NCBI GenBank assembly: GCA_028820405.1
Contig: JAPPJI010000001.1
Span: forward strand, 1 to 62,731
Direction of reading: 5' to 3'
DNA: 62,731 bases
Source: Candidatus Kaiserbacteria bacterium
GTDB lineage: Bacteria; Patescibacteriota; Minisyncoccia; Phycocordibacterales; JABAAK01
The notes under the pieces were generated by a model. The model ran no database searches and had not been told where the DNA came from. It saw nothing but the letters and a program-made list of their open reading frames with translations. Below are positions 19,166 through 62,731 of the stretch, one piece after another (within the stretch, counting starts at the first letter, position 1; each line of letters opens with the position of its first letter). Both the position numbers and the translations under genes were made by a program.

Positions 19166-19244
19166 GATCTCTATCCAAGTATATGCAGTATACTGTCTCG
19201 CCACCCTGTTTTCAAACTTTTACACCACAAACATAACTCCCCCG

Positions 19245-21262: not shown

Positions 21263-21309
21263 GGATAAAAATAAAAGCCCCTGTACACTTTCGTTTGTGT
21301 ACAGGGGGC
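21263..21309 (-). terminator. strong intrinsic terminator about 60 nt upstream of the cysteine desulfurase start
   Basis: On the minus strand: GCCCCCTGTACAC-AAACGAAA-GTGTACAGGGGC followed by TTTTATTTTTAT. Confidence 0.6.
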
Positions 21310-38544: not shown

Positions 38545-39018
38545 TTATACAAGACTGATAGTGTCACCGGGTTTCAAGACAACATACGCCTTTTTCCTTG
38601 ACGCGGTGAACCCGTATCGTTGCTGTCGCTGATTTTGGGTACGAACCTGTTTCCGACGAGACGGTCGCCTTGCTATGCGAACTGATCGAGGACGGACCCC
38701 ATACACCGCTTCAACTGCCTGTGCGACAGAAAACTTGTCCGCTCGATCATGCACAAGAAATGTGTACACTCCTTTTTCAGACAAGTCGGCCGCCTTTTCA
38801 GTGACGACAGGACGGGAGAGGATGCGGTATGACGACAGACGATCCGCTGCGGGAATCCCTTCCTGTTTTTGGTACGATCGATGTATGTGTGACAGACGCC
38901 TGGTCCGACGCATTGAACTCGACCGCTTGGCTCGCACCGGTTTTACCGATACCGGTACTGCACCTTTTGCGTCTTCTTTGTCGTCATCGCCTTTTTTAAA
39001 TAGTGTGGGGAAAATCAT
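38545..39018 (-). CDS. rplW: 50S ribosomal protein L23 with an N-terminal extension of about 60 aa
   Basis: Core ILSRPVVTEKAADLSEKGVYTFLVHDRADKFSVAQAVEAVYGV. The ATGA overlap with rplD supports the upstream start. Confidence 0.85.
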   Translation of the reverse strand: MIFPTLFKKGDDDKEDAKGAVPVSVKPVRAKRSSSMRRTRRLSHIHRSYQKQEGIPAADRLSSYRILSRPVVTEKAADLSEKGVYTFLVHDRADKFSVAQAVEAVYGVRPRSVRIARRPSRRKQVRTQNQRQQRYGFTASRKKAYVVLKPGDTISLV

Positions 39019-40644: not shown

Positions 40645-41835
40645 TTAGGAGATAATCTTTGTTACCACACCGGCACCGACCGTACGACCACCTTCGCGAA
40701 TCGCGAATCGCTGTTGCTCTTCAAGTGCAACAGGACTGATGAGAGAAACGGTTACGTTGATCGTGTCGCCTGGCATTGCCATCTTCACGTCTTCCGCAAG
40801 CTTCAGCTCACCGGTCACGTCAGTTGTTCGAATGTAGAACTGCGGTTTGTAGCCACCGACAATCGGTGTGTGACGACCTCCCTCGTCTTTCGAGAGGATG
40901 TACACTTCGGCTTCAAATTCTTTGTGCGGTGTTACCGATCCGGTAGCGGCAAGCACCTGACCTCGGTGAATATCTTCTTTCTTCACACCCCGAAGCAGCA
41001 CGCCGGCGTTGTCACCGGCACGACCTTCATCGAGTTCCTTATTGAACATTTCAATACCGGTCACCGTTGTCTTCTCTGTGTCCTTAATACCGACAATTTC
41101 AATCTCTTCACCAACTTTTACAATTCCCCGCTCAATCTTACCCGTCACCACTGATCCTCGACCTTCAATAGAGAAAATGTCTTCAATCGGCATGAGGAAC
41201 GGCTTATCCGTGTCTCGCTTCGGCTCCGGGAAGAAGGTATCCATCGCATCAACGAGCTCAATAATCTTCTTTCCTTCCTCACCGGTCGGGTCCTCGAGCG
41301 CCTTCAGGGCGGATCCTCGAATAACGGGAGCATTGTCACCGTCAAACTCATATTTGCTCAAGAGTTCTCGCATCTCAGCTTCAACAAGGTCAATAATCTC
41401 AGGATCATCAACCATGTCACACTTGTTAATAAAGACGATAAGATTCGGCACACCGACCTGTCTTGCAAGCAGGATGTGCTCACGGGTTTGTGGCATTGCC
41501 CCGTCAGTTGCGGCGACAACAATAACCGCACCGTCCATCTGTGCGGCACCCGTAATCATGTTTTTAATATAGTCAGCGTGACCGGGAGCGTCGACGTGTG
41601 CGTAGTGTCGCTTCGGTGTCTCATACTCATTGTGCGAAAGCGCAATGGTAATACCACGAGCTTTTTCTTCCGGCGCGTTGTCAATACCTTCAACGTCCTT
41701 GACGCGAGCACCATATCCTTCTGTGTTATTCAACACATTGAGGATAGACGCCGTCAACGTCGTTTTTCCGTGGTCAACGTGACCAATAGTCCCCACGTTT
41801 ACGTGAGGTTTGCTTCTATCAAATGCTTCTGCCAT
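40645..41835 (-). CDS. tuf: elongation factor Tu
   Basis: Start at ATG 41835: [29 protein letters not shown], then DAPGHADY and NKCD. The 30-aa track extension was rejected. Confidence 0.93.
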
Positions 41836-41994
41836 ATCGTATGTTTTTTGTAGGGTGATAATGATGCATTCAAGGGTTTTTCGCCTGATACAAAACAACA
41901 GACCATTGCTTACCGCAATGTGCAAAAAAGAGCCACATGCAATGTCGCTTTCACGACAATGGGTATAGTAAACCGAAACGGGAAAGATGGCAAG

Positions 41995-42306
41995 TTAGGC
42001 AATTACTGCTTCAGCCTTTTCTGCGTACTCGTTCTTGATCTTGAGCACTTCTTTTTCCAACAGTGCAGACAGGTCAATCCCTTTTCCTGAGAGCAGTTTG
42101 ACAACTCCCTCACCGTCCTGTTGTTCAAAAAACCCTACAAGCATTTCCTGTTCACTCTCGTCAAGCTGTTTAAGTATTTCTGTCAATGCACGTGTCTCAA
42201 CAATTGCAACCGCTTTACTAAGAATCTCATCTCGAACATCTTCAGGTGAGTTCTCAATACCGAGTACTTCACCAAGACCCATCTTTTCAACTTCTTCCGT
42301 TAACAT
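41995..42306 (-). CDS. small acidic helical hypothetical protein (103 aa)
   Basis: Start at ATG 42306 (MLTEEVEKMGLGEV) with a TATACT -10 located 6 nt upstream. Track start 42327 is a TTG. No family recognised. Confidence 0.55.
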   Translation of the reverse strand: MLTEEVEKMGLGEVLGIENSPEDVRDEILSKAVAIVETRALTEILKQLDESEQEMLVGFFEQQDGEGVVKLLSGKGIDLSALLEKEVLKIKNEYAEKAEAVIA

Positions 42307-42312
42307 ATTTTT

Positions 42313-42318
42313 AGTATA
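42313..42318 (-). promoter_or_regulatory. -10 TATACT 6 nt upstream of ATG 42306
   Basis: The reverse complement of 42313..42318 is TATACT. Confidence 0.35.
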
Positions 42319-42359
42319 CGTCGGCAAAGTGCCAAAGAAAAGAAGTTATACACACCTTG

Positions 42360-45300
42360 TTAAAGTGCGGCAAACCTGCTGATATCAGCACTGCCGAGGA
42401 TAATTTCCCCTGCGGTTGACGACTGTCTGACAAGGTTGAAATATTTACCGCCACCACTAACCGTAGCTCCCTCTGCCTTCTGAAGAATAGAAATAATTCC
42501 CTGAGGGTCCTGTCGTTCTTCGACAATGCTCTTGGCAAGTTCCGGAACAGCTTCATTCATAAGGGTAGCGTTTCCGGCGTGATCAAGCATTGCGATTTTA
42601 AGCACGGATTCAACAGCAGCAACAAGACTCACCGGAACTTCACCGTCACCTTTCAGGTCAAACAAGTCTTTCTTCTCCTCGGAAACAGATGTTATGAATC
42701 GCTCCACCATAGATTCATCGGGACGGCTAAACGAAATACCGTTTGCAGCCTTACCTTCACCGAGGTCAATAACCAGTGTTTCTATTGACCCATCACTGCC
42801 CCGGACCACATCCGCGGACGCCGGCAGTGAAGCGAGGCGATCGGACCATCCGGACTCACTGCTAAACCACGGCTTGAAGTCGGCAAGTGAAACATTCTCA
42901 AGTGACGTTCCTCCTTTCTGGAAACTCACCGTTACGTCACCAAGATCATTACCGGCAACTTCCTGTAAGATTGCAGCAAATTCTTCTGAATCGGCAGAAA
43001 ATCCTTCCTCAGGTTCTGAGAGATCCGCCGCTGGTTCCTGATCGGGAGCCGGGGACGACACTGTCTCATCGATACCTGCCATGGATTGATCTGACATCTC
43101 TTCATCCATTTTTTGATTCGGCATGACCTCACTCTGATTCTGTTCTGCAGCTGCAGTATCGGGCTGAGAAGGTGTTGCCTCGCTCTCTGCCGGCGATACG
43201 CCCTCTGTGCCGGAAAGGAATTCCTGAACTGCCTGTTTGTTTATCGTATCCCCGATTTCAATATAGTTAGGAGCATCACCGAGATTTCTCACGTCAGCAC
43301 GCATGCCAAACTCCTTGAGCCGTGCTATCTTTTCCTTCGCGCTGAGCTGTGACCACTTCTGCACAAACGAAGATTGCTGTTCAGGTTCGTATTCAAGAAT
43401 GGTGAACAATCTGTCTCCTTTTTGAACCGTATGCAAGTCAGCAGACAGCTCTGCTTCGTGACCTTCTGCCTCAGGTTTTCCACTGTCAGAAATCTCCACC
43501 TTATTCTCCGGAGCGGATGTTGTGTCAGGCGTCTCGACGCCGGACAGTGCACTGTAGAGGTCTTGCGCCTGATCCCGAAGAACGAAACCGGCCGCACCTC
43601 CGATGACGGCACCGAACAAAAAGGCCTTCTGTCGTTTTGAAACACCTTTCTTCCTGAATGCTACTTCCCGCCTATGATCAACTGATTCAACAAGGTCAAG
43701 GAACTTCTGCACCCGATCAGCATTGTTGAGGTCGTTTTTCGCAGCTTCTACCTTGAGGTTAATTTCTTGCTGCAACAAATGTTGATATATAGACTCAAGA
43801 CGAACGTATGCCGGTTTCTGCAAGAATCTCTCTACGTCACCACCCTGCTGTCTTACAAACGCAAGGTAATCGTTACGAAGTGTCATGACCTCGGCAAACG
43901 TACCTCCTCGGACACTCTTCTGGTTTTCAAATGTTTCCAAGAAATTTTCTAATTTCTGCTCCTCTGCCTTTTCTTCTCTCGTTGCAACAAAACTCTCAGC
44001 TGTTATACCGCCGCCGACAGCACCAAGTCCTGCAGTCCATGCAATGAAGGCAGGACTCCCAACGGCACCGGTGCCAAAACCGAGGAGAGCGGTAATGACA
44101 TTACGAACCGATGCCTGTCGTGCCATGAACTTGAGAATCCCTGCAGTTTTTCCTTTCCTGGCGTCGATGCGGTGACGCACACCAAGCACGTTCTTGTCAT
44201 ATAGATTCATCTCAGAAAACGATTGGTATGCCTGTTTCAGTTTCTCTGTAAAGGATGCCTGCTCCAGTTCACTCTGGGCATCCGAAAGATCTTTATCAAG
44301 CATGTCAACGATTTCTTCTTCAACATGATCTATCCGCTCTTTTTTGTCCTTGAGCTGTTCAATCTCTTCTTCAGTCTTACTCCTATTCGTCTCATACTCC
44401 TGCATCATGTCGCTCACGTGTAACGCTTTTCTTTCAGCATCCTCAAGTATGTGCCGTGACTTCTCAACAGCTTCTTCCTCACCGCCGCTCTCAGCACCTT
44501 CTTCTTTTATTCGATCAATGAGATCCTTTGTAGCCACTTGCCGCTGTTCCCAATCAGCCTCTCGCTCGTGGAGAACGGCAGTCTTCTCCTTCACGGCAAT
44601 AGCCTCAGGCTCAAGCAGTGTCTGTGCAGTTTGCTCAACCGTCATTTGAGAGTTAAGATCAACACCTTCCTGTCCGGCTTTTTCTTGGATATCAGCAATT
44701 TCTTTTTCAATGTCAGCGATTTCTTTCTGAGACATCTCTCTGGATTCAGCGAGAGCCTTTTCGGCACGTGCCAGCCGATCTGCTGACTCCTTGTCACTGT
44801 CTTGACCTTCTTTTTCTGTGTTCTGAAGGACTTCCCGAGCAACCCTCGCCTCCTCTTCTTGATCAGCTAGCACCTGACCCCACTTCGCGTCACATCCTAA
44901 AAGGGCAGTTGTCTTTTCGTTGTTCGCAACAATGAGCGGGTGCAGTACCGTGAACACGCGCCGCTGGTTCGGACTGACGTTAACTTGTTCAGCTTCTCTT
45001 TGAACACGGGCAAGCTCCTGTCGAGCCTTTTCGATATCACGCTGCGCCTCCCGTTGAATGTTCGCAAGTTTTTGCTCAGCCTGTTCAAGATCTTGCTGTC
45101 GTTTCTTTTCCTGGTTCAGCACTTCTTGCTTTTTCTCAAAATCCTCCCTTGCAGTCGCAACCGCTGTCAGAGCACTTTCATGCTGAGCCTGGAGATCGCC
45201 GTGTGCTCGGGCAAGGTATGAGAGCTCCTGTTCTGCCCGTGACAGAGATTTCTCTACCTGCTTCAGCTGCTCCTTTCTGGCAACTTCTGCCGTACTCTGA

Positions 45301-46133
45301 GAACGTAGCTTTTCTTGCTTCGCCTGTATCTGACGCAGCATACCCCCCTTCTCTTCCTCCATCTCCCTTTTTCTGTCAGCTTCTATCCCAGCATGCTTCT
45401 CCTGTAGTTCTGTAAGCGGATCTTGTTCGATATCCGGCTCATCCTCGGTGTGGACAGGTGCGGGTCCTTCCACGTCACTCTCAGGAACCTGATCTTCCGA
45501 TTCTGCTACCGGTTCAGGTTCTGCTTCCTCTTGAGGAGATTCATCTTCTTCATTGACACCCTCTGCAACCTTCTCTTCTCGAGGCGTTCTTTCTTTCCCC
45601 TCCTCACCTTCTTTCATTGCAGACGTCTCGTGATGAGATGAAGGTTGTTCTTCCTGCCCCGCAGCGTCACCGCTTCCCCCCTTCACCTCACCAGCAGTCT
45701 CTGCAACAACGTCACCGAGATCACTGGTTTCATCATCCGGATCAGCACCCTGTTCACGCACATACTGCTTCAACCTTGCGATCTCAAACAGACTGAACGG
45801 TGGAACAGATCGTCGCGGATCGTCTGCCTGAGATACTTTGAAAAGACTGACAAAAGTATTGTGTAGCATTTCGAGACTGTGTCGATACACGTTCATCTTC
45901 TCTTCCGCTTCTTCCTCACTGAGATCGCTGTCATACAAACCCCTTGCGAACATCTCAATAGATTTACGCAGTTGTTCAAAACCGCCACCCGCTCCACCTT
46001 TCTGTGCATACTGAAAGACCGTGTTCACCGTGCCGTCTTGCAACATCCCTCGCAACACCTCATCTTTTCCGACCGATTCCCGAGCAACCGACCGTTCTTT
46101 TTGTTCACGCTGTACCACCGTATCCTCTGCCAT
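42360..46133 (-). CDS. 1257-aa Glu-rich coiled-coil membrane protein (hypothetical)
   Basis: About 675 aa of N-terminal acidic heptad-like sequence. Gly-rich hydrophobic segments VRNVITALLGFGTGAVGSPAFIAWTAGLGAVGGGI (about aa 676-715) and AFLFGAVIGGAAGFVL (about aa 837-852). About 400 aa of C-terminal region. No family recognised. Confidence 0.7.
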   Translation of the reverse strand: MAEDTVVQREQKERSVARESVGKDEVLRGMLQDGTVNTVFQYAQKGGAGGGFEQLRKSIEMFARGLYDSDLSEEEAEEKMNVYRHSLEMLHNTFVSLFKVSQADDPRRSVPPFSLFEIARLKQYVREQGADPDDETSDLGDVVAETAGEVKGGSGDAAGQEEQPSSHHETSAMKEGEEGKERTPREEKVAEGVNEEDESPQEEAEPEPVAESEDQVPESDVEGPAPVHTEDEPDIEQDPLTELQEKHAGIEADRKREMEEEKGGMLRQIQAKQEKLRSQSTAEVARKEQLKQVEKSLSRAEQELSYLARAHGDLQAQHESALTAVATAREDFEKKQEVLNQEKKRQQDLEQAEQKLANIQREAQRDIEKARQELARVQREAEQVNVSPNQRRVFTVLHPLIVANNEKTTALLGCDAKWGQVLADQEEEARVAREVLQNTEKEGQDSDKESADRLARAEKALAESREMSQKEIADIEKEIADIQEKAGQEGVDLNSQMTVEQTAQTLLEPEAIAVKEKTAVLHEREADWEQRQVATKDLIDRIKEEGAESGGEEEAVEKSRHILEDAERKALHVSDMMQEYETNRSKTEEEIEQLKDKKERIDHVEEEIVDMLDKDLSDAQSELEQASFTEKLKQAYQSFSEMNLYDKNVLGVRHRIDARKGKTAGILKFMARQASVRNVITALLGFGTGAVGSPAFIAWTAGLGAVGGGITAESFVATREEKAEEQKLENFLETFENQKSVRGGTFAEVMTLRNDYLAFVRQQGGDVERFLQKPAYVRLESIYQHLLQQEINLKVEAAKNDLNNADRVQKFLDLVESVDHRREVAFRKKGVSKRQKAFLFGAVIGGAAGFVLRDQAQDLYSALSGVETPDTTSAPENKVEISDSGKPEAEGHEAELSADLHTVQKGDRLFTILEYEPEQQSSFVQKWSQLSAKEKIARLKEFGMRADVRNLGDAPNYIEIGDTINKQAVQEFLSGTEGVSPAESEATPSQPDTAAAEQNQSEVMPNQKMDEEMSDQSMAGIDETVSSPAPDQEPAADLSEPEEGFSADSEEFAAILQEVAGNDLGDVTVSFQKGGTSLENVSLADFKPWFSSESGWSDRLASLPASADVVRGSDGSIETLVIDLGEGKAANGISFSRPDESMVERFITSVSEEKKDLFDLKGDGEVPVSLVAAVESVLKIAMLDHAGNATLMNEAVPELAKSIVEERQDPQGIISILQKAEGATVSGGGKYFNLVRQSSTAGEIILGSADISRFAAL

Positions 46134-46242
46134 ACACTATGCACAGATAGTGTACATCGGTGTGTACTGGGAAACTACATCTATACACATTGAATGAGAT
46201 TGCTGCGGTGCACAACTCCTCGTGCACAAGGGTGTTGTGCTG

Positions 46243-46248
46243 TACACT
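46243..46248 (+). promoter_or_regulatory. -10-like TACACT 6 nt upstream of ATG 46255
   Basis: Read directly on the plus strand. There is no SD. Confidence 0.3.
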
Positions 46249-46254
46249 GATACC

Positions 46255-46689
46255 ATGCCAACCGCCGAAGGAAGTACGTTTAGCGAAGAACTGGAATCTA
46301 TTAAAAACGAGGTCAAGCAGTCACTTGATCAGGAACGAACCCGGAAACAAAAAAGAGACCAACCTGCAGGTCGCGAACACACAAGTGCAGAGCGGGAGAT
46401 GCTGGCAGTTCGCGACGCGATAGCAAAACTGACGGGTCACGAACCAAAAACGGTCGTTCCGCCACCCGTTAATCAGGAGGGCGGCACAGATACCGATCAC
46501 TTCACTGACATTGACGAATCGGTAAAGAAAGAAGTGACGGACCTCGTGGAAGAAACACTCAGCGGCGGCAGTATTGCTGCCGTTGCAGCGAAAGCAATGA
46601 AAAAGAATGACCCGCTTATCCTCGACCTATACCACGATGCTATGGCGAGAGAGACGCACCGGCGGTTTTCTGATCAAAACGCACCATGA
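46255..46689 (+). CDS. acidic hypothetical protein (144 aa)
   Basis: Start at ATG 46255 (MPTAEGSTFSEE); track start 46222 is a GTG. Its stop overlaps the next gene start (ATGA), implying coupling with the ATPase. Confidence 0.55.
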   Translation: MPTAEGSTFSEELESIKNEVKQSLDQERTRKQKRDQPAGREHTSAEREMLAVRDAIAKLTGHEPKTVVPPPVNQEGGTDTDHFTDIDESVKKEVTDLVEETLSGGSIAAVAAKAMKKNDPLILDLYHDAMARETHRRFSDQNAP

Positions 46690-49094
46690 TCCTCGACCCG
46701 CTTCTCGATAAATTGACAGACCTCTGGAACACCCTCCTTGCATCTGAGCGGGTCACGCAGGCATATGCACTCTTTGGTGCCGCAATCGGTATCTGGGTTA
46801 TGTCTATGGCCGCCCTCTGGTTCACGAAACGGCGATCCCGAAAAAAGGCCCTCAAAGAAGCTGTTGCATATACCCTACTGCAGGTAACACAGACACCGCA
46901 TGCGGGTAACGACGAACAACAAAATGACCTTGTGCAAATACGGCTGTTTGAAGACCTCCTGCACTCTATCGTCCCTGAAAAAAAATCCATCACACTTGAG
47001 ATGGCGGTGCCGAGCAAAGGAACTGACATCATGTTTTTTATTGCCGTACCAAAAGAGTACGAGGATACCGTGAAAACGCAGGTGCGGCGGGTCTTTGAAC
47101 GAGCACAGGTGCAAGAGGTCTCTGACTACACCATATTCCGAGAAGGCGGTCACAGCGAGCTGCTTGACCTTACTCTCAGCCAATATGACGGATTGCCGAT
47201 CTATACGTATAAAAAGAGTGAGACCGACACCTTCGCCCCTATTATCGGAACCTTTGCAAGTGCACGGGAAGACGGCGTCGGCATTGCCATGCAGCTCACC
47301 CTCCGGCGATCAGACAAACAGAAAGCACGGGAGATACGGGGCGTTCTGAAAGACCTCAGGCGAGGAAAACGCCTGAAAGAGATCAAGCCGACCGGTGTCG
47401 GCGGAAAACTGCAGCAAGCGGCTGCGGTTGCCAACACCGGAGATGAAAAAGAACCGGAAGCGTCCCCCGAGGCAGCACTTGTCGAAGAGAAGGTATCAGA
47501 ACAACTCTATAACGTTACCGTACGACTCGGCATCTGCACTGACAGTGAGGAAAAAACGAGACTCCTCTCTGAAACCCTGCAGGGGCGGTTTGAATCGTTT
47601 GGCTCCGCAGAGCATAATGCTTTCTCATTTACAAAACGAAAGGACAAGACAACTGCCCTCAACTTTACCTTCCGCCTCCATGACGTAAAAAGAAGTTCGA
47701 CGCTCAACGCACAGGAAATCACCAGCATCTTCCACCTGCCGACGAGACCGCTTGAGGTGGGGAACCTCCAATGGATGAAGACGAAACGGGTTGCAGCACC
47801 GACAGAGACAGCAACCGAAGGACTCTTCCTCGGAGATAACCTTTTCCACGATCAAAAAAAGGAAATATACATGCCGGAACAAGACCGTCTGCGACACATC
47901 TACATCATCGGTCAAACCGGAACGGGAAAGACAGCGAGTATCAAATCAATGGCATACCAGGATATTCAGAGCGGGAAAGGACTCTGTATCATTGATCCGC
48001 ACGGTGACCTCGTCGACGATATGCTCACCACTATCCCGGAGAGCCGACTCGATGACGTCATTGTCTTTGATCCGAGTAACGTGAAGAGTCCTCTCGGACT
48101 TAATATGCTTGAGTATGACAAAAGCCGTCCGGAAGAGAAGACGTTTATCGTCAACGAAATCCTTTCCATCTTCAACCGTCTGTTTGGACAGAACAACCCT
48201 GAGTCAACCGGTCCGGCATTTCAGCAGTACATGCGAAACACACTTTTGCTCCTGATGGACGGCAAGCAGGATGAGCCTGCAACTCTCATGGAGGTTCCCC
48301 GTGTCTTCACCGATGATTCGTTTCGCGAGTCACTTTTAAAACAGTGCACGCTTGAGCCGGTACGGCAGTTCTGGGAAGATGAGGCGAGTAAAGTGGAGGG
48401 TGATTGGAGCCTCAGCAATATTGCTCCGTACATCACATCAAAGTTTGGCAACTTCACGACCAATGACTATGTCCGTCCGATTATTGAACAACCGCACTCA
48501 TCATTCTCATTCCGAGAGGTCATGGATTCCGGGAAGATGTTGTTTGTAAAGTTGCCGAAGGGAAAAATCGGAGAGATCAATGCACAACTTCTCGGCATGC
48601 TCGTAACAGGAAAAATTGCCCTTGCCGCATTCTCTCGAGACGATGTCCCCGAACATGAGCGAAAAGACTTCTTCTTCTACATCGACGAATTTCAAAACTT
48701 TACCACTGACAGTATCAGTCAGATTCTCTCCGAGGCAAGAAAATACCACCTCAGCCTCACTATTGCACACCAGTACATGGAACAGCTCACTGATGATATT
48801 CGCGGTGCCGTTCTTGGTAATGTGGGGACAACAATTGCATTTCGAACGGGTATTCAGGACGCGGAAATATTAGAAAAGAAATTTTCACCGGAGTTTTCAG
48901 CACAGGAGTTAAGTGATATCGAAAACCTCAACTGTGTCATCAGCATGCTCTCCAATCAAAAAGTGCTTTCACCATTTACTATGCACATTCGTTTTGCTCC
49001 GCAAGGAAACCCAAACCTGCGAGACCATGTTATCAGCTATACATCACTTAAACACCAAAAAGAGGTGCAAAAAAAAATGGGAGCACATAATTAG
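46686..49094 (+). CDS. membrane-anchored VirD4/TraG/TrwB-like (type IV coupling protein-like) P-loop ATPase
   Basis: N-terminal TM helix (AYALFGAAIGIWVMSMAALWF). Walker A IIGQTGTGKTAS followed by CIIDPHGDL. Walker B FFFYIDEFQNF. ARKYHLSLTIAHQYMEQL resembles the TraG/TraD C-terminal motif. Confidence 0.6.
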   Translation: MILDPLLDKLTDLWNTLLASERVTQAYALFGAAIGIWVMSMAALWFTKRRSRKKALKEAVAYTLLQVTQTPHAGNDEQQNDLVQIRLFEDLLHSIVPEKKSITLEMAVPSKGTDIMFFIAVPKEYEDTVKTQVRRVFERAQVQEVSDYTIFREGGHSELLDLTLSQYDGLPIYTYKKSETDTFAPIIGTFASAREDGVGIAMQLTLRRSDKQKAREIRGVLKDLRRGKRLKEIKPTGVGGKLQQAAAVANTGDEKEPEASPEAALVEEKVSEQLYNVTVRLGICTDSEEKTRLLSETLQGRFESFGSAEHNAFSFTKRKDKTTALNFTFRLHDVKRSSTLNAQEITSIFHLPTRPLEVGNLQWMKTKRVAAPTETATEGLFLGDNLFHDQKKEIYMPEQDRLRHIYIIGQTGTGKTASIKSMAYQDIQSGKGLCIIDPHGDLVDDMLTTIPESRLDDVIVFDPSNVKSPLGLNMLEYDKSRPEEKTFIVNEILSIFNRLFGQNNPESTGPAFQQYMRNTLLLLMDGKQDEPATLMEVPRVFTDDSFRESLLKQCTLEPVRQFWEDEASKVEGDWSLSNIAPYITSKFGNFTTNDYVRPIIEQPHSSFSFREVMDSGKMLFVKLPKGKIGEINAQLLGMLVTGKIALAAFSRDDVPEHERKDFFFYIDEFQNFTTDSISQILSEARKYHLSLTIAHQYMEQLTDDIRGAVLGNVGTTIAFRTGIQDAEILEKKFSPEFSAQELSDIENLNCVISMLSNQKVLSPFTMHIRFAPQGNPNLRDHVISYTSLKHQKEVQKKMGAHN

Positions 49095-49107
49095 TGCTCC
49101 CATAGTA

Positions 49108-50106
49108 CTACATTCTCTCCAACCGATATACGGGGCGAAATCCTTTGCTGATAGCAAATGCTCGGAATTCTTGCAGCTTTTTCTGCACTCTTCCGTCAAT
49201 CAGCTTGGCACGATGGATAACGCTATTTGCGTAACCCTGTCCGCGCTTCCAAGATCCGCCAGGACCGGCATAGTACGCACCCAATGAAAACAGAATTCGG
49301 TTTCCACGACCTTTCCTGTCGTACAGTTTCTTTAGATAGTACGCTCCTGTGAGCATACTTCCCTGAAAACTCCACGGGTCAACAGGTTTTGACAGACCGT
49401 AAAACTTCCGAACCTTGTCTCGTCTTGGGTTGTAAGAAATCTTCACGAGACCGCCTTTGACAGCAATGTAGGCACGAGTGCACCCACCGATACTGCCAAT
49501 CTCTTTCTGACATACTGTGCGGGAAAAACCCGCCCTTTTCTGCATGTCAGCGAGAGCAGATCTCGTCTTCTTCCCCATGCGACCATCCTCAGCCAGGCGG
49601 TATCCCCGCCTGTTGAGAAACCACTGAACGATACGTACGTCGTTCGCGGTTGTCACTAATTTGCCACGCCTGATGCGGGCAGAAAATTGCGTCTTTGACC
49701 GGACAACGGTGTATCCATTCAATTCCGCAAAAGTGGAAGGTATTACTTGCGTGACTCCGATTGCTCCGCCCCAGCCATAACCGGGGCGACGTGACGCACA
49801 AGCCAATTTCGGATCATAGCCGAACTGTTCGGCAAAAATCCAGAATAGGGGTGCGTCTCTCGACGGATGGGCATCAGCAATGCCAGCACCCGACGATCCG
49901 ATATTTTTGCCCATACCACTTTCTTGCTGGGCAAGTGCGATCAAAAGCGGGAGCGAAAGCCCCGTTTTCTGAGAAGCCAACATCAACGCGTCCATCGCGT
50001 AGGTGTGACCTCTACCATCCGCACTCTCCCAATCATCAAAGCAGTGACCCTTTGCAGAGACCATCTGAGCCATACCGGTTATCAGTAGTGCCAGCAACAA
50101 TGCCAT
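49108..50106 (-). CDS. secreted lytic transglycosylase (SLT domain) with embedded peptidoglycan-binding repeat
   Basis: Signal peptide. Catalytic-Glu motif LLIALAQQESGMG, then GAIGVTQVIPSTF and GAYYAG. PG_binding_1-like VRIVQWFLNRRGYRLAEDGRMGKKTRSALADMQ. Strong SD GAGGAGG before the ATG. Confidence 0.7.
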   Translation of the reverse strand: MALLLALLITGMAQMVSAKGHCFDDWESADGRGHTYAMDALMLASQKTGLSLPLLIALAQQESGMGKNIGSSGAGIADAHPSRDAPLFWIFAEQFGYDPKLACASRRPGYGWGGAIGVTQVIPSTFAELNGYTVVRSKTQFSARIRRGKLVTTANDVRIVQWFLNRRGYRLAEDGRMGKKTRSALADMQKRAGFSRTVCQKEIGSIGGCTRAYIAVKGGLVKISYNPRRDKVRKFYGLSKPVDPWSFQGSMLTGAYYLKKLYDRKGRGNRILFSLGAYYAGPGGSWKRGQGYANSVIHRAKLIDGRVQKKLQEFRAFAISKGFRPVYRLERM

Positions 50107-50158
50107 GCTGTCCTCCTCGTTGTTGGATTATTGTAGATAAATGTTCTCGTATACCAAT

Positions 50159-50187
50159 ATAATACAATAAATGATATAAATCGTCAA
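50159..50187 (-). promoter_or_regulatory. promoter TTGACG-17-TATTAT for the transglycosylase (leader of about 45 nt with SD)
   Basis: The reverse complement of 50182..50187 is TTGACG and of 50159..50164 is TATTAT. Confidence 0.5.
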
Positions 50188-50261
50188 TATTCTCTCTTTT
50201 CTTGCCTTTCTGGAGACAAAAAGGCTGTAAAATAAGGGTATTTTTGAAAAAATGCCGATAT

Positions 50262-52439
50262 TTAGGCACTTTTCCCACCTCCCCCTGAACGACTCGCAAT
50301 GACCTCATCAGCGATGTTTTTCGGCACCTCTGCGTAGTGAGAGAACTCCATGGTTGAGGTTCCCCGACCGTTGGTCAGCGATCGAAGGCTCGTGGTGTAG
50401 CCAAAAATCGTTGCGAGGGGTATTTTCACTTTTAACACCTTCAAATTTCCCTGATCCTCAGCCCCTTCCATCTGTCCTCGGCGAGACGAGAGGTCACCGC
50501 TGACGTCCCCCATGGTCTCTTCCGGCACCGTCACCTCCATATCCATAATCGGCTCAAGAAGGATGGGATCTGCCTGTTTGATTCCTTCGCGGAATGCTTG
50601 TGCTGCCGCCACCTTGAAGGCAATCTCAGATGAGTCAACTTCGTGATATGACCCGTCATATAAATCAACTGCGACATTGACCATCGGATAGCCGGCATAG
50701 ACTCCTCGATCCATTGACTCACGAACCCCCTTCTCAACCGCCGGGATATACTCCTGCGGAATAACTCCCCCTTTGATACTGTTGGTAAACATGAAGGTCG
50801 CATCATGTTTTACGTTCTTCGGCAGTGCTGCAACCTCTTCTTCTGTCATCTCAGGGAGTGGTGCAATCTTCATCTTCACGTGACCGTACTGACCGCGACC
50901 TCCCGTCTGTCGAACGTACTTCTCTTCGATATCCGCCTCTTTTCGAATTGTCTCGCGGTATGCAACCTGAGGCTGTCCGACTCCCGCTTCAACGTTGAAC
51001 TCCCGCTTCATACGATCAACAATCACCTCAAGATGCAATTCACCCATACCGGCAATGATTGTTTCTCCGGTTTCAGCGTCAGTGTGCACGCGAAATGTCG
51101 GATCCTCCGCAGAGAGGCGGGTGAGTGCGATACCCATCTTTTCTTGATCAGACTTTGTCTTCGGTTCAATCCTCAACTGGATCACCGGTTCCGGGAACAC
51201 AATCTTTTCTAACTCAACCGGCTCCTTCTCATCACAGAGTGTGTCAGATGTTTTTGCATCTTTCAGACCGACAGCTGCGGCAATCTCACCGGCATACACC
51301 ACACCAACCTCTTCCCGCTCATTTGCATGAAGACGAACAATACGACCGATACGTTCTTTGTCGCCGGTTCGGGTGTTGTGCACATAGGAGCCGGCTTTGA
51401 GCATGCCGGAGTAGACACGGAAAAAGGCAAGTTGACCGACAAACGGATCAATTTGCAGTTTGAAAACAAGGGAAGAGAATGGCTCTTCATCAGACGCGGG
51501 TCGTTCAATAGTGACATCGGGGTCTTTCGGGTGTGTTCCCTGCACCGGCGGAATATCTATCGGTGCCGGAAGATAGTCCACAACGGCATCAAGCACGAGC
51601 TGCACCCCGTTGTTTTTCAGTGCGGATCCCGCAAATACCGGAAAGACCGTATTCGCAATGGTACCCGTTCGAACTGCCTGCTTCAGATCCGCAACGGGAA
51701 TCTCTTCACCGGCAAGGAATTTCTCAGCAATACCGTCATCAACATCTGCAGCCTTCTCAATTAATTCAGCACGATACTCAGTTGCTTTTTCAACAAGGTC
51801 GGCAGGAATGTCATCTTCACGGATAACTGATCCCATTTCACCCTCAAAGTAGTGTGCACGCATGGTGAGCAGGTCAACGACGCCGGAAAGATTATCTTCA
51901 ATACCGATCGGAATCTGCATGCGAACGGCGTTCGGAGAGAGGCGGTCACGAATCGTTTGAAACGCCTTGTCGTAGTCGGCACCAATTCGATCAAGCTTAT
52001 TGATGAAGCAAATACGGGGAACATGGTACTTATCAGCCTGCCGCCATACCGTCTCTGATTGCGGCTGTACACCGGCGACACCGTCAAAGACAACAACACC
52101 GCCGTCGAGCACTTTCAGGGACCGCTCAACCTCTGCAGTGAAGTCAACGTGACCGGGTGTGTCGATAATGTTGAAGCGGTAGCTGTGCTCTTTGTCACCT
52201 TTCTTTTCTGTCGGTATCCAAAAACACGTTGTCGCAGCTGAGGTGATGGTGATACCCCGTTCGCGCTCCTGCTCCATCCAGTCCATGACCGCCTCACCCT
52301 CGTGCACCTCACCAATTTTATGCGAGACACCGGTATAAAAAAGGATACGCTCGGTTACTGTTGTCTTTCCGGCATCAATGTGTGCAATGACACCAAAATT
52401 GCGAACACGATCCAGCGGATAATCTCGAACTTCCGTCAT
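50262..52439 (-). CDS. fusA: elongation factor G
   Basis: Motifs [23 protein letters not shown] and NKLDR, with the full five-domain length. Confidence 0.93.
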
Positions 52440-57379: not shown

Positions 57380-59029
57380 TTAATACATGCCGCCGCCCAT
57401 TGCAGCAGGGTCTACCTCCGGCTTCTCTTTCTCCGGGATGTCAGCGACCGCTGCTTCGGTTGTCAGGAAGATACCGGCAGTTGAAACAGCATGCCGCAGC
57501 CCGCCCCGAGCCACTTTCAATGGATCAATGACACCGGCAGCAAACATGTCCTCAACATGCACCCGTTTCAGCGCGTCGTACCCTGCTGATTCACTGGTAC
57601 TCTCTTGCACCTTACGAACAACTGCCTTTCCTTCCCCGTCACCGAGTGCATTTTCAACAATACGAATAAGAGGAGCCTCAAGCGCTTCGATGACAATGTT
57701 ATACCCTTTCTCTTCATACTCATCACCCCACGTCATTTCACCCCGTTTGTTTCTGAGATATTTGGCAATGTGTGCAAATGCTGATCCGCCGCCGGCGATA
57801 AGTCCTTCTTCAATTGCCGCTTTGGTTGCATTCACCGCATCTTCAACCTTCAGTTTCAGATACTTCATTTCAGCCTCAGTCGCAGCACCGACACGGATCA
57901 CTGCAACACCGCCTGCCAGCTTTGCGATACGGTCACGCAACTTATCTTTCTCAAACGTACTCTCAGTTTGCTCAAGTGTTGCTTCAAGTGACGTTATACG
58001 GTCGTTAATAGCAGTCTTTGTTGTCGCAGACCCGACGATGACAGTACTGTCTTTCTTCGCGACGATGCGTGATGCACGTCCGAGTGCTTCAATGCCAACA
58101 GTCTCAAACGACATCCCGGTGTCTTGTGTCACAACCTGTGCACCGATAGTTACGGCGATATCGCCAAGCAATTCTTTCTTACTGTCGCCAAACCCTGGCG
58201 CTTTGATAGCGAGCACATTGAAGGTGCCACGCAATTTGTTGAGGACAAATGTGGTCAGTGCCTCACCTTCAACGTCTTCAGCAATGATGACGAGATCTTT
58301 CATGCCAGCTTGGGTCACCCGCTCAAGGAACGGCATGATATCCTTCACGTTGCCAATCTTTCCGTCGGTAATGAGAACCGGGACATCCTTGTACTCTGCT
58401 TCAAGCCGTTCCGGATTAGTCATCATGTACGGAGAGACATACCCCTTATCAATCTCAAGTCCTTCGACAACCTCCGACTCAATCGTCAGTGACTGCGACT
58501 CCTCAACAGTTACCACCCCTTTATCACCGACTTTCTGCACGGTTTCGGCGATGATCTTTCCGAGTTCAGCCGACTCAGCGGACACTGATGCAACGTGAAC
58601 AACCTCCGCATCATTTGAGACGTCACGTTTCACCTGCTGCAGTCGCTCTTCCGCCACCTTGTGTGCCTGCTCCATACCGCGACGAACGGACAGTGCATTT
58701 ACTCCTTTATCAACCTGCTTCATACCCTCATTGATCATGGACTGCACCAACACAACCGAGGTGCTCGTTCCGTCACCGGCAAGATCATTTGTTTTGTTCG
58801 CCACCTCCTTTGTTATCTCGGCACCGATGTTTTCAAACGGATCTTCAAGAGAGATGTCACGTGCAATAGAGACACCGTCGTTGGTGATAGTCGGACCGCC
58901 GTAGGATTTTTGCAGGGCAACGTTTCGTCCGAACGGACCAATGGTGATACTCACCGCTTTTGCAACGGCATCAATCCCCTTTCTGATTTTCGCTCGTGCC
59001 TCTTCGTCAAAAATAATGTGTTTAGCCAT
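57380..59029 (-). CDS. groL: chaperonin GroEL
   Basis: Start at ATG 59029: MAKHIIFDEEARAKI. Motifs AGDGTSTS, AIKAPGFGD, C-terminal AAMGGGMY. Confidence 0.93.
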   Translation of the reverse strand: MAKHIIFDEEARAKIRKGIDAVAKAVSITIGPFGRNVALQKSYGGPTITNDGVSIARDISLEDPFENIGAEITKEVANKTNDLAGDGTSTSVVLVQSMINEGMKQVDKGVNALSVRRGMEQAHKVAEERLQQVKRDVSNDAEVVHVASVSAESAELGKIIAETVQKVGDKGVVTVEESQSLTIESEVVEGLEIDKGYVSPYMMTNPERLEAEYKDVPVLITDGKIGNVKDIMPFLERVTQAGMKDLVIIAEDVEGEALTTFVLNKLRGTFNVLAIKAPGFGDSKKELLGDIAVTIGAQVVTQDTGMSFETVGIEALGRASRIVAKKDSTVIVGSATTKTAINDRITSLEATLEQTESTFEKDKLRDRIAKLAGGVAVIRVGAATEAEMKYLKLKVEDAVNATKAAIEEGLIAGGGSAFAHIAKYLRNKRGEMTWGDEYEEKGYNIVIEALEAPLIRIVENALGDGEGKAVVRKVQESTSESAGYDALKRVHVEDMFAAGVIDPLKVARGGLRHAVSTAGIFLTTEAAVADIPEKEKPEVDPAAMGGGMY

Positions 59030-59042
59030 AGACAGGTATGTG

Positions 59043-59363
59043 TTACGCAGTGGATGTGAGAATACCGATGACGCTTCCCTCGCTGACCAGGTGATACTCT
59101 TTGCCATCAACCGTCACCTTATCACCCCAGGAGAAAAGAACTTTTTGCCCGACCGCTACTTTGGGTTTAATGATACTCCCGGCATCAGTTTCCCGACCCG
59201 ACCCGACGGCACGAACAATGCCGATGTTTGTGTCACTGCTCTCAGAACTTTTGGGGAGTAAAATACCGGATCGTACCTCTTCACCTCCCTCAACTTTTTC
59301 AACGAGAACACGATCTCCCAGCGGAGTTATCGGAACAGAATCTGCTGTCTTGTCAACATCCAT
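59043..59363 (-). CDS. groS: co-chaperonin GroES
   Basis: Sequence ITPLGDRVLVEKVE...SGILLP...VGQKVLFS with the position before groEL. Confidence 0.88.
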   Translation of the reverse strand: MDVDKTADSVPITPLGDRVLVEKVEGGEEVRSGILLPKSSESSDTNIGIVRAVGSGRETDAGSIIKPKVAVGQKVLFSWGDKVTVDGKEYHLVSEGSVIGILTSTA

Positions 59364-59372
59364 ACGCGTTTT

Positions 59373-59402
59373 ATTATAGAAAAAATTACCTTAATAATAC
59401 AA
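59373..59402 (-). promoter_or_regulatory. promoter TTGTAT-18-TATAAT, 9 nt upstream of groES ATG (leaderless); no CIRCE seen
   Basis: The reverse complement of 59373..59378 is TATAAT and of 59397..59402 is TTGTAT. Confidence 0.45.
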
Positions 59403-59456
59403 AACTATTTATATACTAAAAATTTTAATTTATCAAAAAAGGAAATTAGAAATATT

Positions 59457-60629
59457 TTATGAGGTATTTAAGACATTATTATAATCTATCTTATTCTTAA
59501 AAAAGACGCTAATAATAGAATGTCCATATATATTCCCACCTTCTTTTTTACATTCATGAGCAATTCTTCCTGCGATAACTGCCGGAGACCTTTTAATCTT
59601 CTTTGATATGTTGAGAATCGCCTGCTTTACATCCTCAGATTCCATTATACTTCTCCTCACACGTGCGAAGTCTGGGATGAGATATTTTTCTGCAAACAAG
59701 TCAGCTTCTCGCTCTACTCTTTCATTTCTTCGTGATACCCCCTCTTCTTCAAGGTCAACATAACATTCTTTTTTACCATGCTTCAAAATATGACCAATTT
59801 CATGAAATACATTAAACCAAAATCTATCTTCACTCTTCCTAGTTGTCGTAATCATAATAAGTGCCTTGTCAGGACTAACCCACGTTGCAGCACCTTGGGC
59901 ATGCGTATTCTTAAAATACGGCATATATGCTAAAACAATTCCGCAATCCTTCAGCATCTCTTCTAGTTTAGGCAAATATACACTGCTATCCTCTTGAGAT
60001 AGCTGTGCCATGTCTTCTAATTTCGTCTTTAACGCACTTTTATCAAAGTGACCAACACGGGTTTTCTGTGCCTTCTTCATTCCTAGTTGTAACCATGCGA
60101 CCGTTGTATACCTATTGAATGATCGTCCTTTGTGTTTTCTAAAAGCAATTTGTGAAGTATGACAGCCCTCTACATTTTTGAGAGAACTGACACCAAAAAA
60201 TTGTCGGAGGTTAAGGATTATGTCTCCGGCATTAGAGGCAGTGTTTCTTAATTTATCCACAAGCCCGAACCGAGAGAGCTCTTTATAGGTCTCAGTAAGA
60301 TCGGGATCACAGAGATATACCTTCGCCTCTTCTTTAAGTTCGGACTCCTTTTGAAGTTTCAATATATCTTCCTCGTACTGACTCTGCAGGTTTGTCCAAT
60401 ATGTTTCAGAAAACGGAAACACGTTGCTGAGGTGAGAAGCGGTTTTTCTTGTAATCGGATTTTTCCCTTTAACAATTTCATTTACCGCTTTCTCTGACAT
60501 CCCGATTCTTTGCGCAAGATCTTTTTGAGTGATAGAAAATTCATCAAGTACTTCAACAAGAAACTCACCCGGGTGGATAGCGGTTACCATCTCCCATCCC
60601 TTTATTTCTTCTTTAACATTTTTTCTCAT
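59457..60629 (-). CDS. fusion of a HigA-type XRE HTH antitoxin domain and an ImmA/IrrE (COG2856, DUF955) zinc-peptidase domain
   Basis: N-terminal HigA-like HTH: IHPGEFLVEVLDEFSITQKDLAQRIGMSEKAVNEIVKGKNPIT. C-terminal HExxH motif FNVFHEIGHILKHG followed by READLFAEKYLIP. The gene is AT-rich. Confidence 0.7.
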   Translation of the reverse strand: MRKNVKEEIKGWEMVTAIHPGEFLVEVLDEFSITQKDLAQRIGMSEKAVNEIVKGKNPITRKTASHLSNVFPFSETYWTNLQSQYEEDILKLQKESELKEEAKVYLCDPDLTETYKELSRFGLVDKLRNTASNAGDIILNLRQFFGVSSLKNVEGCHTSQIAFRKHKGRSFNRYTTVAWLQLGMKKAQKTRVGHFDKSALKTKLEDMAQLSQEDSSVYLPKLEEMLKDCGIVLAYMPYFKNTHAQGAATWVSPDKALIMITTTRKSEDRFWFNVFHEIGHILKHGKKECYVDLEEEGVSRRNERVEREADLFAEKYLIPDFARVRRSIMESEDVKQAILNISKKIKRSPAVIAGRIAHECKKEGGNIYGHSIISVFFKNKIDYNNVLNTS

Positions 60630-60640
60630 AATATTGTTAT

Positions 60641-60961
60641 TTAATGATAATCATCTACTATTTTTAATATTTTAATTTCTTGTATTGACTGTTTGATAAA
60701 CTGACCATTCTTATTCTTCTCGTATGGTCTATGTGGCTCACAGATCAGCCTCTTTGTATTCCTTCTCTCGGCAATATCTATCGCAAAACAACCTGCGAGA
60801 GTACCTTGTAAAAAATGTGCCTTACCGGCACTCACTGGCTCAAGATCGCAAAAAGTTTCTGCTGCCCTTATGCTCGCCATACGCTTCTTTGTAGTGCGAT
60901 TACTCTTGGCATACTTTTCAACTTTCTTTTTTAGGCTTTTGCTACTCCAGTGTATTTTCAT
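60641..60961 (-). CDS. HigB/RelE-superfamily toxin candidate
   Basis: 106 aa located upstream of the HigA-like gene (the reversed order typical of higBA). AHFLQGTLAGCFAIDIAERRNTKRLICEP and the terminal IVDDYH resemble the HigB-like killer family. Confidence 0.55.
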   Translation of the reverse strand: MKIHWSSKSLKKKVEKYAKSNRTTKKRMASIRAAETFCDLEPVSAGKAHFLQGTLAGCFAIDIAERRNTKRLICEPHRPYEKNKNGQFIKQSIQEIKILKIVDDYH

Positions 60962-60981
60962 AGTACTATGGCTCTCATTTC

Positions 60982-61002
60982 TATTAACCTAGTATGTTAA
61001 TA
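60982..61002. promoter_or_regulatory. 7-bp inverted repeat TATTAAC-N7-GTTAATA, candidate HigA operator overlapping a -10-like CATACT
   Basis: TATTAAC at 60982..60988 and GTTAATA at 60996..61002, 20-40 nt upstream of the higB-like ATG. Confidence 0.4.
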
Positions 61003-61109: not shown

Positions 61110-61149
61110 TATGCATGAAAAAAGGCGAGTACACATTTGTGTACTCGCC
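61110..61149 (-). terminator. intrinsic terminator after ORF 61157..62236
   Basis: On the minus strand: GGCGAGTACACA-AA-TGTGTACTCGCC followed by TTTTTTC. It starts 8 nt after the TAA stop. Confidence 0.6.
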
Positions 61150-62375: not shown

Positions 62376-62731
62376 CTACCTTTTTGTCTGCACATCTTCA
62401 ACCTCATATGTCTGTAACGGATCGTTGGGATCCCTCCTCGTATATCCCCTGCCGGTTACAATAAAGGTATATGTTTTCCCATTTTCCGGATTTTTTAGGA
62501 CTTCGTTGTCAATAAAATGGGTATATCGAGGGTCAGCTTTTAATCTGTTCAGACCTTTCTGCTCAGCTCCATTTACCCTGCGAATCAGATATTTTGTGGG
62601 CGAACTACCCGCATTTTCCCGTTCGGCAATCCAATGCCCGGCTGCTCCCCCTTCCAGCACGACTTTGGCATCAAACTGCTGTCGAATACCATCGGTATCC
62701 GTGCCTACATTAATATCAATGACACCGCCAG
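62376..62731 (-). CDS. C-terminal part of an unknown protein (N-terminus beyond right window edge)
   Basis: The frame of track ORF 62376..62660 stays open upstream to position 62731 (...GGVIDINVGTDTDGIRQQFDAKVVLEGGAAGHW...). The GTG at 62660 is probably internal. Confidence 0.5.
   Translation of the reverse strand, partial: GGVIDINVGTDTDGIRQQFDAKVVLEGGAAGHWIAERENAGSSPTKYLIRRVNGAEQKGLNRLKADPRYTHFIDNEVLKNPENGKTYTFIVTGRGYTRRDPNDPLQTYEVEDVQTKR

Follow-up and report, generated by a model that had tools for sequence, protein, structure and literature searches.

A coupling-protein-like ATPase and four neighbouring genes between fusA and tuf in a Candidatus Kaiserbacteria genome

Patescibacteria, which represent much of bacterial diversity, are without nucleotide and lipid synthesis and live on other cells. 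By what means they and their hosts exchange macromolecules is an open question, on which the locus reported here may bear. In a contig of an ultra-small Candidatus Kaiserbacteria bacterium (GenBank assembly GCA_028820405.1, contig JAPPJI010000001.1; the stretch of 62,731 nucleotides analysed is called the window), five genes, here A to E, stand between fusA and tuf: what kind of system do they encode, and do they belong together at this place? We propose, with a probability of about 0.5, that the block encodes a motor derived from a coupling protein, with a dedicated adaptor and a membrane scaffold, whose function we infer. An earlier note, made from the letters of the window, had read five open reading frames (ORFs) in mixed orientation filling positions 41836-50261 between tuf and fusA, and the ORF map agrees with this layout:

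40645-41835, minus strand: tuf (flank), a 396-aa EF-Tu of the same length as in relatives, opening the tuf-rpsJ-... cluster (start taken as the ATG, Met31 of the listed TTG ORF)
41965-41993, minus strand: promoter-like site 5' of tuf, TTGCCA-17-TACTAT, a sigma-70-like consensus match only
41995-42306, minus strand: gene A, 103 aa counted from the ATG, acidic, all-helical, putative DUF5663 family member
42360-46133, minus strand: gene B, a membrane protein of 1257 aa
46134-46254, no strand: spacer between divergent B and C-D, a candidate control region with GTRYACA motifs and a palindrome
46255-46689, plus strand: gene C, 144 aa counted from the ATG, acidic, helical
46686-49094, plus strand: gene D, a P-loop ATPase of 802 aa with a membrane anchor
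49077-49103, no strand: hairpin with a T-run where D and E converge at their 3' ends
49108-50106, minus strand: gene E, an SLT lytic transglycosylase of 332 aa
50159-50187, minus strand: promoter-like site 5' of E, TTGACG-17-TATTAT, a sigma-70-like consensus match only
50262-52439, minus strand: fusA (flank), last gene of rpsL-rpsG-fusA

All five ORFs are real genes, and an independent assembly (L166; D 83% identical) keeps them in unchanged order. The stop of C and the start of D overlap as ATGA at 46686-46689, as had been noted, and A, B and C are all acidic (aspartate plus glutamate, 19-22% of residues). The GC content of the block (0.46-0.52), its GC at third codon positions (GC3) and its codon usage are indistinguishable from the rest of the window (codon distance of D, 0.050 versus 0.043-0.063 in other large window genes), which bears out the earlier view that the block is no recent import. 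The block has no flanking repeats, no tRNA gene inside or adjoining it and no integrase among its five proteins; it is native chromosome of a Kaiserbacteria-like member of Patescibacteria.

The largest body of evidence concerns D. Its N-terminus has one hydrophobic, transmembrane helix (residues ~25-48, followed by KRRSRKK), after which come a DUF8128 domain (PF26449, from precomputed annotation; ~60-350) and a VirD4/TrwB-like motor (~370-775) with a helical insert (~482-600). Walker A (GQTGTGK, 409-415) and Walker B (DE, 667-668) are invariant in 23 diverse homologues. Pfam matches above cut-off were PF10412 TrwB_AAD_bind (40.3 bits; cut-off, 20.5), PF02534 T4SS-DNA_transf (39.0 bits; cut-off, 20.1), PF12696 TraG-D_C (24.8 bits; cut-off, 22) and DUF87 (28.7 bits), and the best NCBIfam match was a VirD4-like CD1115 family (52 bits versus an equivalog cut-off of 250). 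FtsK_SpoIIIE was absent from the Pfam matches, HerA_C was below cut-off and NF040819 reached 15 bits versus 970; the VirB4 signatures were likewise below cut-off (AAA_10, 14.1 bits versus 27.5; TIGR00929, 24 versus 643). The earlier description of D as VirD4/TraG-like is upheld by these type IV coupling protein (T4CP) families, and D is neither FtsK nor canonical HerA. A PDB search with the family profile was significant only for TrwB (1e-7) and DotL (2.5e-3), with HerA-type entries at 0.014 to 1.

The AlphaFold2 (AF2) model of D (84.7 by the predicted local distance difference test, pLDDT) shows the transmembrane helix, an alpha/beta domain (~60-350) and a RecA-like motor with the helical insert. 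In a Foldseek search of the PDB, TrwK/VirB4 was the top full-length match (E-value, 2e-16; ~890 aligned columns), and a second AF2 model, of a family member 35% identical, gave the same ranking (TrwK E-value, 5e-15); as a whole-protein comparison with the domains searched together, this match had a TM-score of only 0.25-0.32 and a root mean square deviation (rmsd) of 15-18. The best fold match of the motor was TrwB (target TM-score, TMt, 0.59-0.68; rmsd, 4.5-6.8). The full-length match to TrwK suggests, from the models, that the N-domain and motor may be laid out as in VirB4.

Homologues of D number more than 5,400 at the 90% cluster level, and the available source names are almost all Patescibacteria; the closest species-representative genome is a Candidatus Kaiserbacteria metagenome-assembled genome (D 64%, fusA 79% and rpsL 88% identical). 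Outside this candidate phyla radiation (CPR) group, a protein of a Bacillus subtilis plasmid (NZ_CP032854.1; WP_121549396.1, annotated "DUF87 domain-containing protein") matched D at 22% identity over 691 aa (E-value, 1e-29), an alignment that takes in most of the DUF8128 region. Its gene is in the T4CP position; directly 3' of it come a gene for a Replic_Relax relaxase and a Tcp-like operon that includes TcpE and a VirB4-like ATPase. Phage G gp156, which is adjoined by a VirB-like ATPase (gp155), and a "VirD4 component-like protein" of SPO1-like phages (phage SP8) share the two-domain fold of D, matches to this phage group being obtained by BLASTP (24% over 773 aa; E-value, 9e-45) and in a Foldseek search of BFVD (E-value, 2.4e-45; TM-score, 0.52; 822 columns); phrog_5156, of the same group, matched at an E-value of 1e-70. 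Given these full-length plasmid and phage relatives together with the Pfam, PDB and fold results, D is a descendant of a VirD4/TrwB-type coupling protein of monoderm conjugation.

Three further observations concern this family. The architecture of DUF8128 plus motor is not CPR-specific: conjugative plasmids of Bacillus have it in the T4CP position, and so do Bacillus phages of the SPO1-like and jumbo kinds among their genes. A distant family member of 1164 aa (P0136) has TrwB_AAD_bind, Replic_Relax (PF13814) and TraG-D_C in one protein and looks like a fusion of coupling protein and relaxase. One relative, L085, encodes a second paralogue of D (18061-19851, minus strand; 596 aa) that is motor only, ~40% identical to other family motors, with no transmembrane helix, no DUF8128 and a basic, low-complexity tail; it agrees with the literature, in which a Patescibacteria genome has on average about two T4CP homologues, and the small genes beside it, tested as pilins, had no Pfam matches.

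To follow the partners of D, ORFs were called and local profiles built for a distant set of 79 species-representative (GTDB) loci in which D is at most 45% identical; 72 of these have sequence 5' of D and are informative for C. The C profile was built on proteins of at most 320 aa, since an iterative profile from the full set drifted into D via C-D fusions. C is a separate, co-directional gene directly 5' of D in 41 of the 72 loci and is fused in-frame to the D N-terminus in another 17, and such fusions are also present among database proteins (P0047 and P0128-P0132). Its conserved part is a C-terminal helical module of ~70 aa with an invariant L..G..D..HD; searches found no Pfam and no PDB relative of C, and in an AF2 model of a natural fusion the C part is a helical bundle (pLDDT, about 70-90). 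A group of small proteins 5' of D in seven loci (F18) was rejected as C homologues (hhalign probability, 0.2%). Because of the ATGA overlap and of the 41 separate and 17 fused loci, C and D are taken as one unit and, on these gene comparisons, as the invariant core of the module across Patescibacteria.

A and B recur beside this core less often. A has no direct Pfam match and no PDB relative; it is 55% identical to its homologue in L081 and 38% identical to that in L084, which carries PF18908, and 9 of 16 aligned family members match DUF5663, so that by transitive evidence A probably belongs to DUF5663. The earlier count of three proteins without a recognisable family is thereby corrected to two. 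B begins with ~680 acidic, coiled-coil residues, followed by two Gly/Ala-rich hydrophobic segments joined by a helical linker, namely a hairpin (~682-716) and a transmembrane segment (836-854), and by a C-terminal part of ~400 aa, in which a LysM-like motif (~901-916) precedes a conserved end domain (~1057-1237). From the charge distribution around the hydrophobic segments, the N-terminal 680 aa would be cytoplasmic, the hairpin re-entrant, the linker cytoplasmic and the C-terminal ~400 aa, after a single membrane crossing, extracellular. The transmembrane core is conserved in L082, L001 and L084, and an exhaustive HMMER search found only five relatives of the C-terminal half among 1.84 billion representatives. 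In L081 (5079-9476), two genes of 966 and 357 aa with a DUF5663 gene between them take the place of B; both end in its C-terminal domain (~40% identical to B 1057-1237), an end-domain duplication. FliG_N and DUF2207 were rejected as families for A and B, their Pfam scores being sub-threshold.

In 12 of the 79 distant loci, a DUF5663 gene (local profile) lies on the D strand within a few kilobases of D, and in nearly all cases the gene just before it encodes a larger protein (231-1479 aa); at L057, where the DUF5663 match is partial, the preceding protein has 419 aa. These are tight same-strand operons (gaps, roughly 0-60 nt) of permuted order, in which D is only 38-40% identical to that of the window: B-A-C-D in L022, L024, L026, L045 and L066, D-B-A-C in L021, and CD-B-A in L044 and L064. 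At least 11 of the large partners have the layout of B, with a charged N-terminal region, a long Gly/Ala-rich stretch and a second Gly/Ala-rich transmembrane segment ~100-150 aa on. An iterative profile of the B transmembrane core recruited Kaiser-like homologues only and none of these positional analogues; the link between B and the B-like proteins is one of position and architecture alone, and homology between them is not claimed. As judged from gene content, the module unit is four genes (B, A, C and D), with A and the B-like gene as recurrent accessories of C-D.

E has a hydrophobic, signal-peptide-like N-terminus, an SLT domain (PF01464; aa 44-129; 31.3 bits; cut-off, 21.3) and a PG_binding_1 domain (aa 154-195; 34.5 bits), and the motifs read from its sequence are the catalytic E-S at E62 (QQES), GVTQ (117-120) and AYYAGPG (near 277-283); with its domains intact, it is the secreted SLT transglycosylase with a peptidoglycan-binding insert that had been described. 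Homologues were found only in L081, L083 (55% identity) and L166 (by Pfam), genomes in which D is 78-83% identical, and its slot is taken by other, unrelated small genes in L082, L084 and L085. E is a recent local addition and not part of the four-gene unit. The expectation that all five genes travel together fails on this point, C-D being constant, A and B-like genes recurrent and E limited to genomes with D at least 78% identical.

The place of the block between fusA and tuf was compared in the following relatives (identity is that of D):

L166, 83%: tuf, A, B, C-D, E, fusA, a block identical to that of the window
L081, 78%: order as in L166, but with B split and the end domain duplicated
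L083, 80%: B, C-D, E and a 125-aa ORF, adjoined by a truncated fusA that borders an insertion with a recombinase
L082 and L084, 61-63%: rpsL-rpsG-fusA, a small gene, D-C, B-A, then comEC-recJ-dnaA-dnaN; no tuf
L001, 64%: rpsL-rpsG-fusA directly at D-C, B-A; no tuf detected, with annotation reaching as far as these genes
L167, 53%: fusA directly at D-C
L085, 56%: tuf directly at C-D, with fusA elsewhere

D adjoins fusA, tuf or both in every relative checked, down to 53% identity, and the block is stably embedded in this lineage, as had been supposed; the simplest reading is that the order fusA / D C ... / tuf may be ancestral in this clade and was broken later on either side. Near the insertion in L083 (6830-15113), fusA is cut to its C-terminal 347 aa; after it come genes for a DUF885 protein, a cysteine dioxygenase-like protein, sulfur transport and a large serine recombinase, and the str operon there appears to be disrupted by an island. 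D is near fusA or tuf in none of the 79 distant loci, so the split junction is a trait of one Kaiserbacteria-like clade and not of the module; in one lineage the fused C-D form directly follows secY-adk-map, at the opposite end of the ribosomal cluster.

We also surveyed 80 metagenomic fusA loci (fusA 56-68% identical). tuf follows fusA in 28, with a gap of <1 kb in 22 of them and of about 1.1-4.7 kb in the other six, and D is in none. Unrelated small genes occupy the gaps examined, three of 0.7-1.0 kb among them; among the nearest metagenomic fusA relatives (L086-L115), the spacer is often 0.7-4.7 kb of small genes, several with hydrophobic N-termini. Together with the promoter-like site 5' of tuf, these gap contents suggest that the fusA-tuf junction is an operon boundary tolerating insertions in this group. 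The position of the block is of lesser interest and points to a permissive operon boundary in this group.

Promoter-like signals had been claimed for each transcription unit; E and tuf have good matches, and no sigma-70-like match passed the scan of the divergent B/C spacer. With the putative promoter 5' of tuf, transcription of tuf-S10 would not depend on the str operon. The hairpin at 49077-49103 has a 10-bp stem (ATGGGAGCAC-TAATTAT-GTGCTCCCAT, then TTTTTTTT); it is called as a putative terminator for E (minus strand) and may serve both directions. The motif GTRYACA is found 44 times in the window (24.6 +/- 5.5 expected), five of these matches being clustered in 98 bp of the B / C-D spacer, and a palindrome (TACACTA-N8-TAGTGTA), conserved in three relatives (L166, L081 and L083), abuts the start of B; array and palindrome are a possible operator for some regulator, a role suggested by motif content and conservation. 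Further GTRYACA sites of the window are at 21282-21303, 38761-38769 and 61129-61144.

Genes of the known type IV secretion system (T4SS) were sought in the window and a further 10 kb, together 72 kb of contig. The window corresponds, in reverse, to 48,826-111,556 of a metagenomic scaffold of 111.6 kb. None of VirB4, VirB3, VirB6, VirB8 and relaxase is among the five proteins of the block, and VirB4, VirB3 and VirB6 were not found in the 72 kb; among the large ORFs of the window and the further 10 kb there are no relaxase or mating-pair-formation genes apart from VirB2-like pilins. One such pilin gene is at 15290-15805 (minus strand; PF18895, 30.6 bits), and an array of five runs from the window end (62376-62731 and beyond; L168 7252-9861; PF18895, 29-31 bits), overlapping the window edge with its last member, ~12 kb and ~16 genes from D.

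The motor that we propose would work as follows. D would be a membrane-anchored, presumably hexameric P-loop ATPase derived from the T4CP of Gram-positive conjugative elements, and C a small acidic helical partner subunit co-translated with it; at the inner membrane face, C-D would hydrolyse ATP and feed or energise the transport of a polymer, either nucleic acid or unfolded protein. B would be a dedicated membrane-spanning scaffold or conduit with A as its small partner, and E, recruited beside the motor in the closest relatives, might open the peptidoglycan locally. The module would have lost the relaxase context of conjugation and would behave as a core gene set, fixed in this clade at the boundary of the str and tuf-S10 transcription units. 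Gene identities, homologies, the C-D fusions, the linkage in operons, the synteny and the lack of mobility signs are shown by the data; the oligomeric state, the substrate, the accessory roles and the independence from a VirB4 machine we infer.

Several points weigh against this proposal. Its interactions and substrate are deduced from genes, homology and linkage. Of the 79 distant loci, only the 12 have both a DUF5663 gene and a B-like one at 10 kb or less from D, so most genomes hold these genes elsewhere or lack them, and there is no reliable sequence similarity between B and its positional partners, pairwise BLAST having given scattered weak links only. A transmembrane helix lies within the first 120 aa of 99 of 109 unfused D homologues and is absent in the C-fused forms, so that membrane anchoring, as predicted from sequence, is not universal. 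The PDB fold search with the models puts VirB4 slightly above VirD4, so that D is not cleanly assigned to one branch of the superfamily. E is limited to a lineage and may have become a neighbour by chance, and with a pilin array ~12 kb away D could be serving the known Patescibacteria T4SS.

That last thought can be extended to the whole block, D with its adaptor C being the coupling ATPase of the described T4SS, whose VirB4, TrsD, VirB3, VirB6 and VirB2-like pilins are encoded elsewhere, and A, B and E unrelated or loosely related neighbours. We hold this, the main rival, possible, if rather doubtful. D belongs to T4CP families, the contig has the pilins, and T4CP genes are often far from virB4: of 5,713 homologues in 2,918 of 3,035 Patescibacteria genomes (96%), only 148 are near it (PMC12102498, Quinonero-Coronel et al. 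2025). According to a review (PMC12857230), the T4SS locus of Southlakia includes VirD4-like components. Yet the genomes with T4CP homologues outnumber those with VirB4 (2,417 of 3,035, 80%), the t4cp homologue of Southlakia (S. epibionticum) is not essential whereas its T4SS genes are, and the authors suggest that T4CP homologues may be "exapted for other functions" (PMC12102498); the essential T4SS cluster is without a recognisable coupling protein (Wang et al. 2023, PMC10633639). Here, D has conserved partners of its own (C, DUF5663 and B-like), none of them a known T4SS component, and the 72 kb showed no VirB4. A DNA translocase with housekeeping duties, akin to FtsK/HerA and serving segregation, repair or uptake with ComEC rather than secretion, would account for the near-universal presence of the D family in the phylum, for the DUF87/HerA match above the Pfam cut-off and the presence of HerA among fold matches, and for neighbours elsewhere such as dnaA-dnaN-recJ-comEC (L082 and L084), dnaX, an FtsQ-like gene and secY-adk-map. 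Such neighbours vary by lineage, however, and belong to the ordinary core of genomes of very small size; the Pfam matches lack FtsK_SpoIIIE, no NurA-like partner gene is among the D neighbours, the motor groups with TrwB and DotL (PDB profile E-value, 1e-7 versus 0.014 to 1 for HerA), and the closest full-length non-CPR relatives are in conjugation operons and phages. On balance we consider this explanation improbable.

Two explanations from mobile and defence DNA seem far more remote. The remnant of an integrated conjugative element or of a prophage, inserted into the fusA-tuf spacer and since decayed, could be expected from the relatives of D on Bacillus conjugative plasmids and in large phages (phrog_5156), from the SLT hydrolases typical of such elements and from the small variable insertions in this spacer in other metagenomic relatives, but composition and codon usage are native, the block is without integrase, relaxase, flanking repeats or tRNA, and C-D is in essentially every Patescibacteria lineage sampled, with its position kept down to 53% identity. 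If there was a transfer from monoderm elements, it was therefore ancient, at the depth of the phylum, and not an event at this locus, and we regard such a remnant as highly improbable. It is just as hard to credit an anti-phage defence system built on a HerA/mad8-like ATPase: the weak PADLOC matches of D that speak for it (mad8, E-value 1.6e-14, motor region only; HerA, 7.5e-9) cover the generic P-loop core only, A, B, C and E have no PADLOC match, there is no effector (nuclease, Sir2, etc.), and the D family is universal and syntenic with core genes, not patchy in defence islands.

A wider form of the coupling-protein-derived motor can be put forward only tentatively: C-D, DUF5663 and a giant Gly/Ala-zipper membrane protein may together be a phylum-wide, undescribed envelope translocation machine, derived from a T4CP and independent of VirB4. 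If this is true, the machine could move nucleic acid or protein between epibiont and host, and that would account for the wider spread of T4CP homologues than of VirB4 across Patescibacteria. The earlier suggestion of an undescribed system is limited for the ATPase, which is not wholly undescribed, as orphan T4CP homologues had been reported (PMC12102498) and the N-domain is DUF8128, and it appears to hold for the partner set: literature searches for DUF8128 and DUF5663 returned no paper, and none was found that describes the four-gene module. The ATPase family is thus catalogued and uncharacterised, and the partner set and the fusion evidence appear unreported. What had been an orphan T4CP homologue becomes a defined four-gene module, which predicts that C binds D, that A and B associate with these two and that there is no dependence on VirB4. 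A near-universal T4CP-derived ATPase beside core translation or replication genes, with a fused or co-translated partner and a giant membrane-spanning protein, is a testable candidate for a part of the exchange machinery, and the module is tied to unexplained homologues in Bacillus plasmids and jumbo/SPO1-like phages.

Elsewhere in the window, a low-GC stretch (59000-61000; 0.38-0.39 versus ~0.50), which contrasts with the native composition of the block, lies between groES and the pilin array and is probably a foreign insertion; it carries a 390-aa protein with HTH_3 and Peptidase_M78 (ImmA/IrrE-like; 59457-60629, minus strand) and a 106-aa protein of no family (60641-60961, minus strand). 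The Phe-tRNA synthetase beta subunit (5494-7797, minus strand; B3_4, B5 and FDX-ACB) has an NlpC/P60 peptidase-like domain (aa 344-405; E-value, 5e-9), also present in the precomputed contig annotation, and a cell-wall peptidase fold is odd in PheT. A protein of 783 aa (2954-5305, minus strand) has an N-terminal Lamin Tail Domain (E-value, 5e-18) as its sole Pfam match.

Among known systems, the T4SS of Patescibacteria shares with the block the phylum, an ancestry in monoderm conjugation and the lack of a relaxase, and the contig carries VirB2-like pilins; it is defined by VirB4, TrsD, VirB3, VirB6 and pilins, none of which is in the block, and the C, DUF5663 and B-like partners go unmentioned there. 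VirB4 itself (TrwK of R388) is the top full-length fold match of D, at low TM-scores, and differs in sequence signature and in having VirB3 adjacent; the Patescibacteria VirB4 proteins of the literature form a clade of other proteins, neighboured by TrsD, VirB3, VirB6 and pilins. C can be likened to CagZ, which partners Cagbeta, and to IcmS/IcmW/DotN/LvgA, which partner DotL: a small acidic helical protein encoded beside a T4CP and presumably bound to it. Cagbeta-CagZ (8dol) is among the fold matches of the D motor; C has no sequence relation to CagZ or the Dot/Icm adaptors and is, in some lineages, fused to the N-terminus of D. Phage G gp156 and the SPO1-like and phrog_5156 proteins share the fold of D and are viral genes, with no homologues of C, A or B known there. 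The "DUF87" protein of Bacillus Tcp/ICEBs1-like plasmids is the closest annotated non-CPR relative of the whole D architecture; its gene sits before a relaxase, TcpE and a VirB4-like ATPase, whereas D of the window has none of these and is not on a mobile element. Finally, D is like the T4CPs (VirD4/TrwB/TraG/TraD) in its N-terminal anchor, RecA-like motor, Walker A and B motifs and helical insert, and differs from them in having one transmembrane helix instead of the usual two, an extra DUF8128 domain of ~290 aa between anchor and motor, and partners of its own (C, DUF5663 and B-like); it belongs to the core genes of the chromosome, and the block has no relaxase or mating-pair-formation gene.

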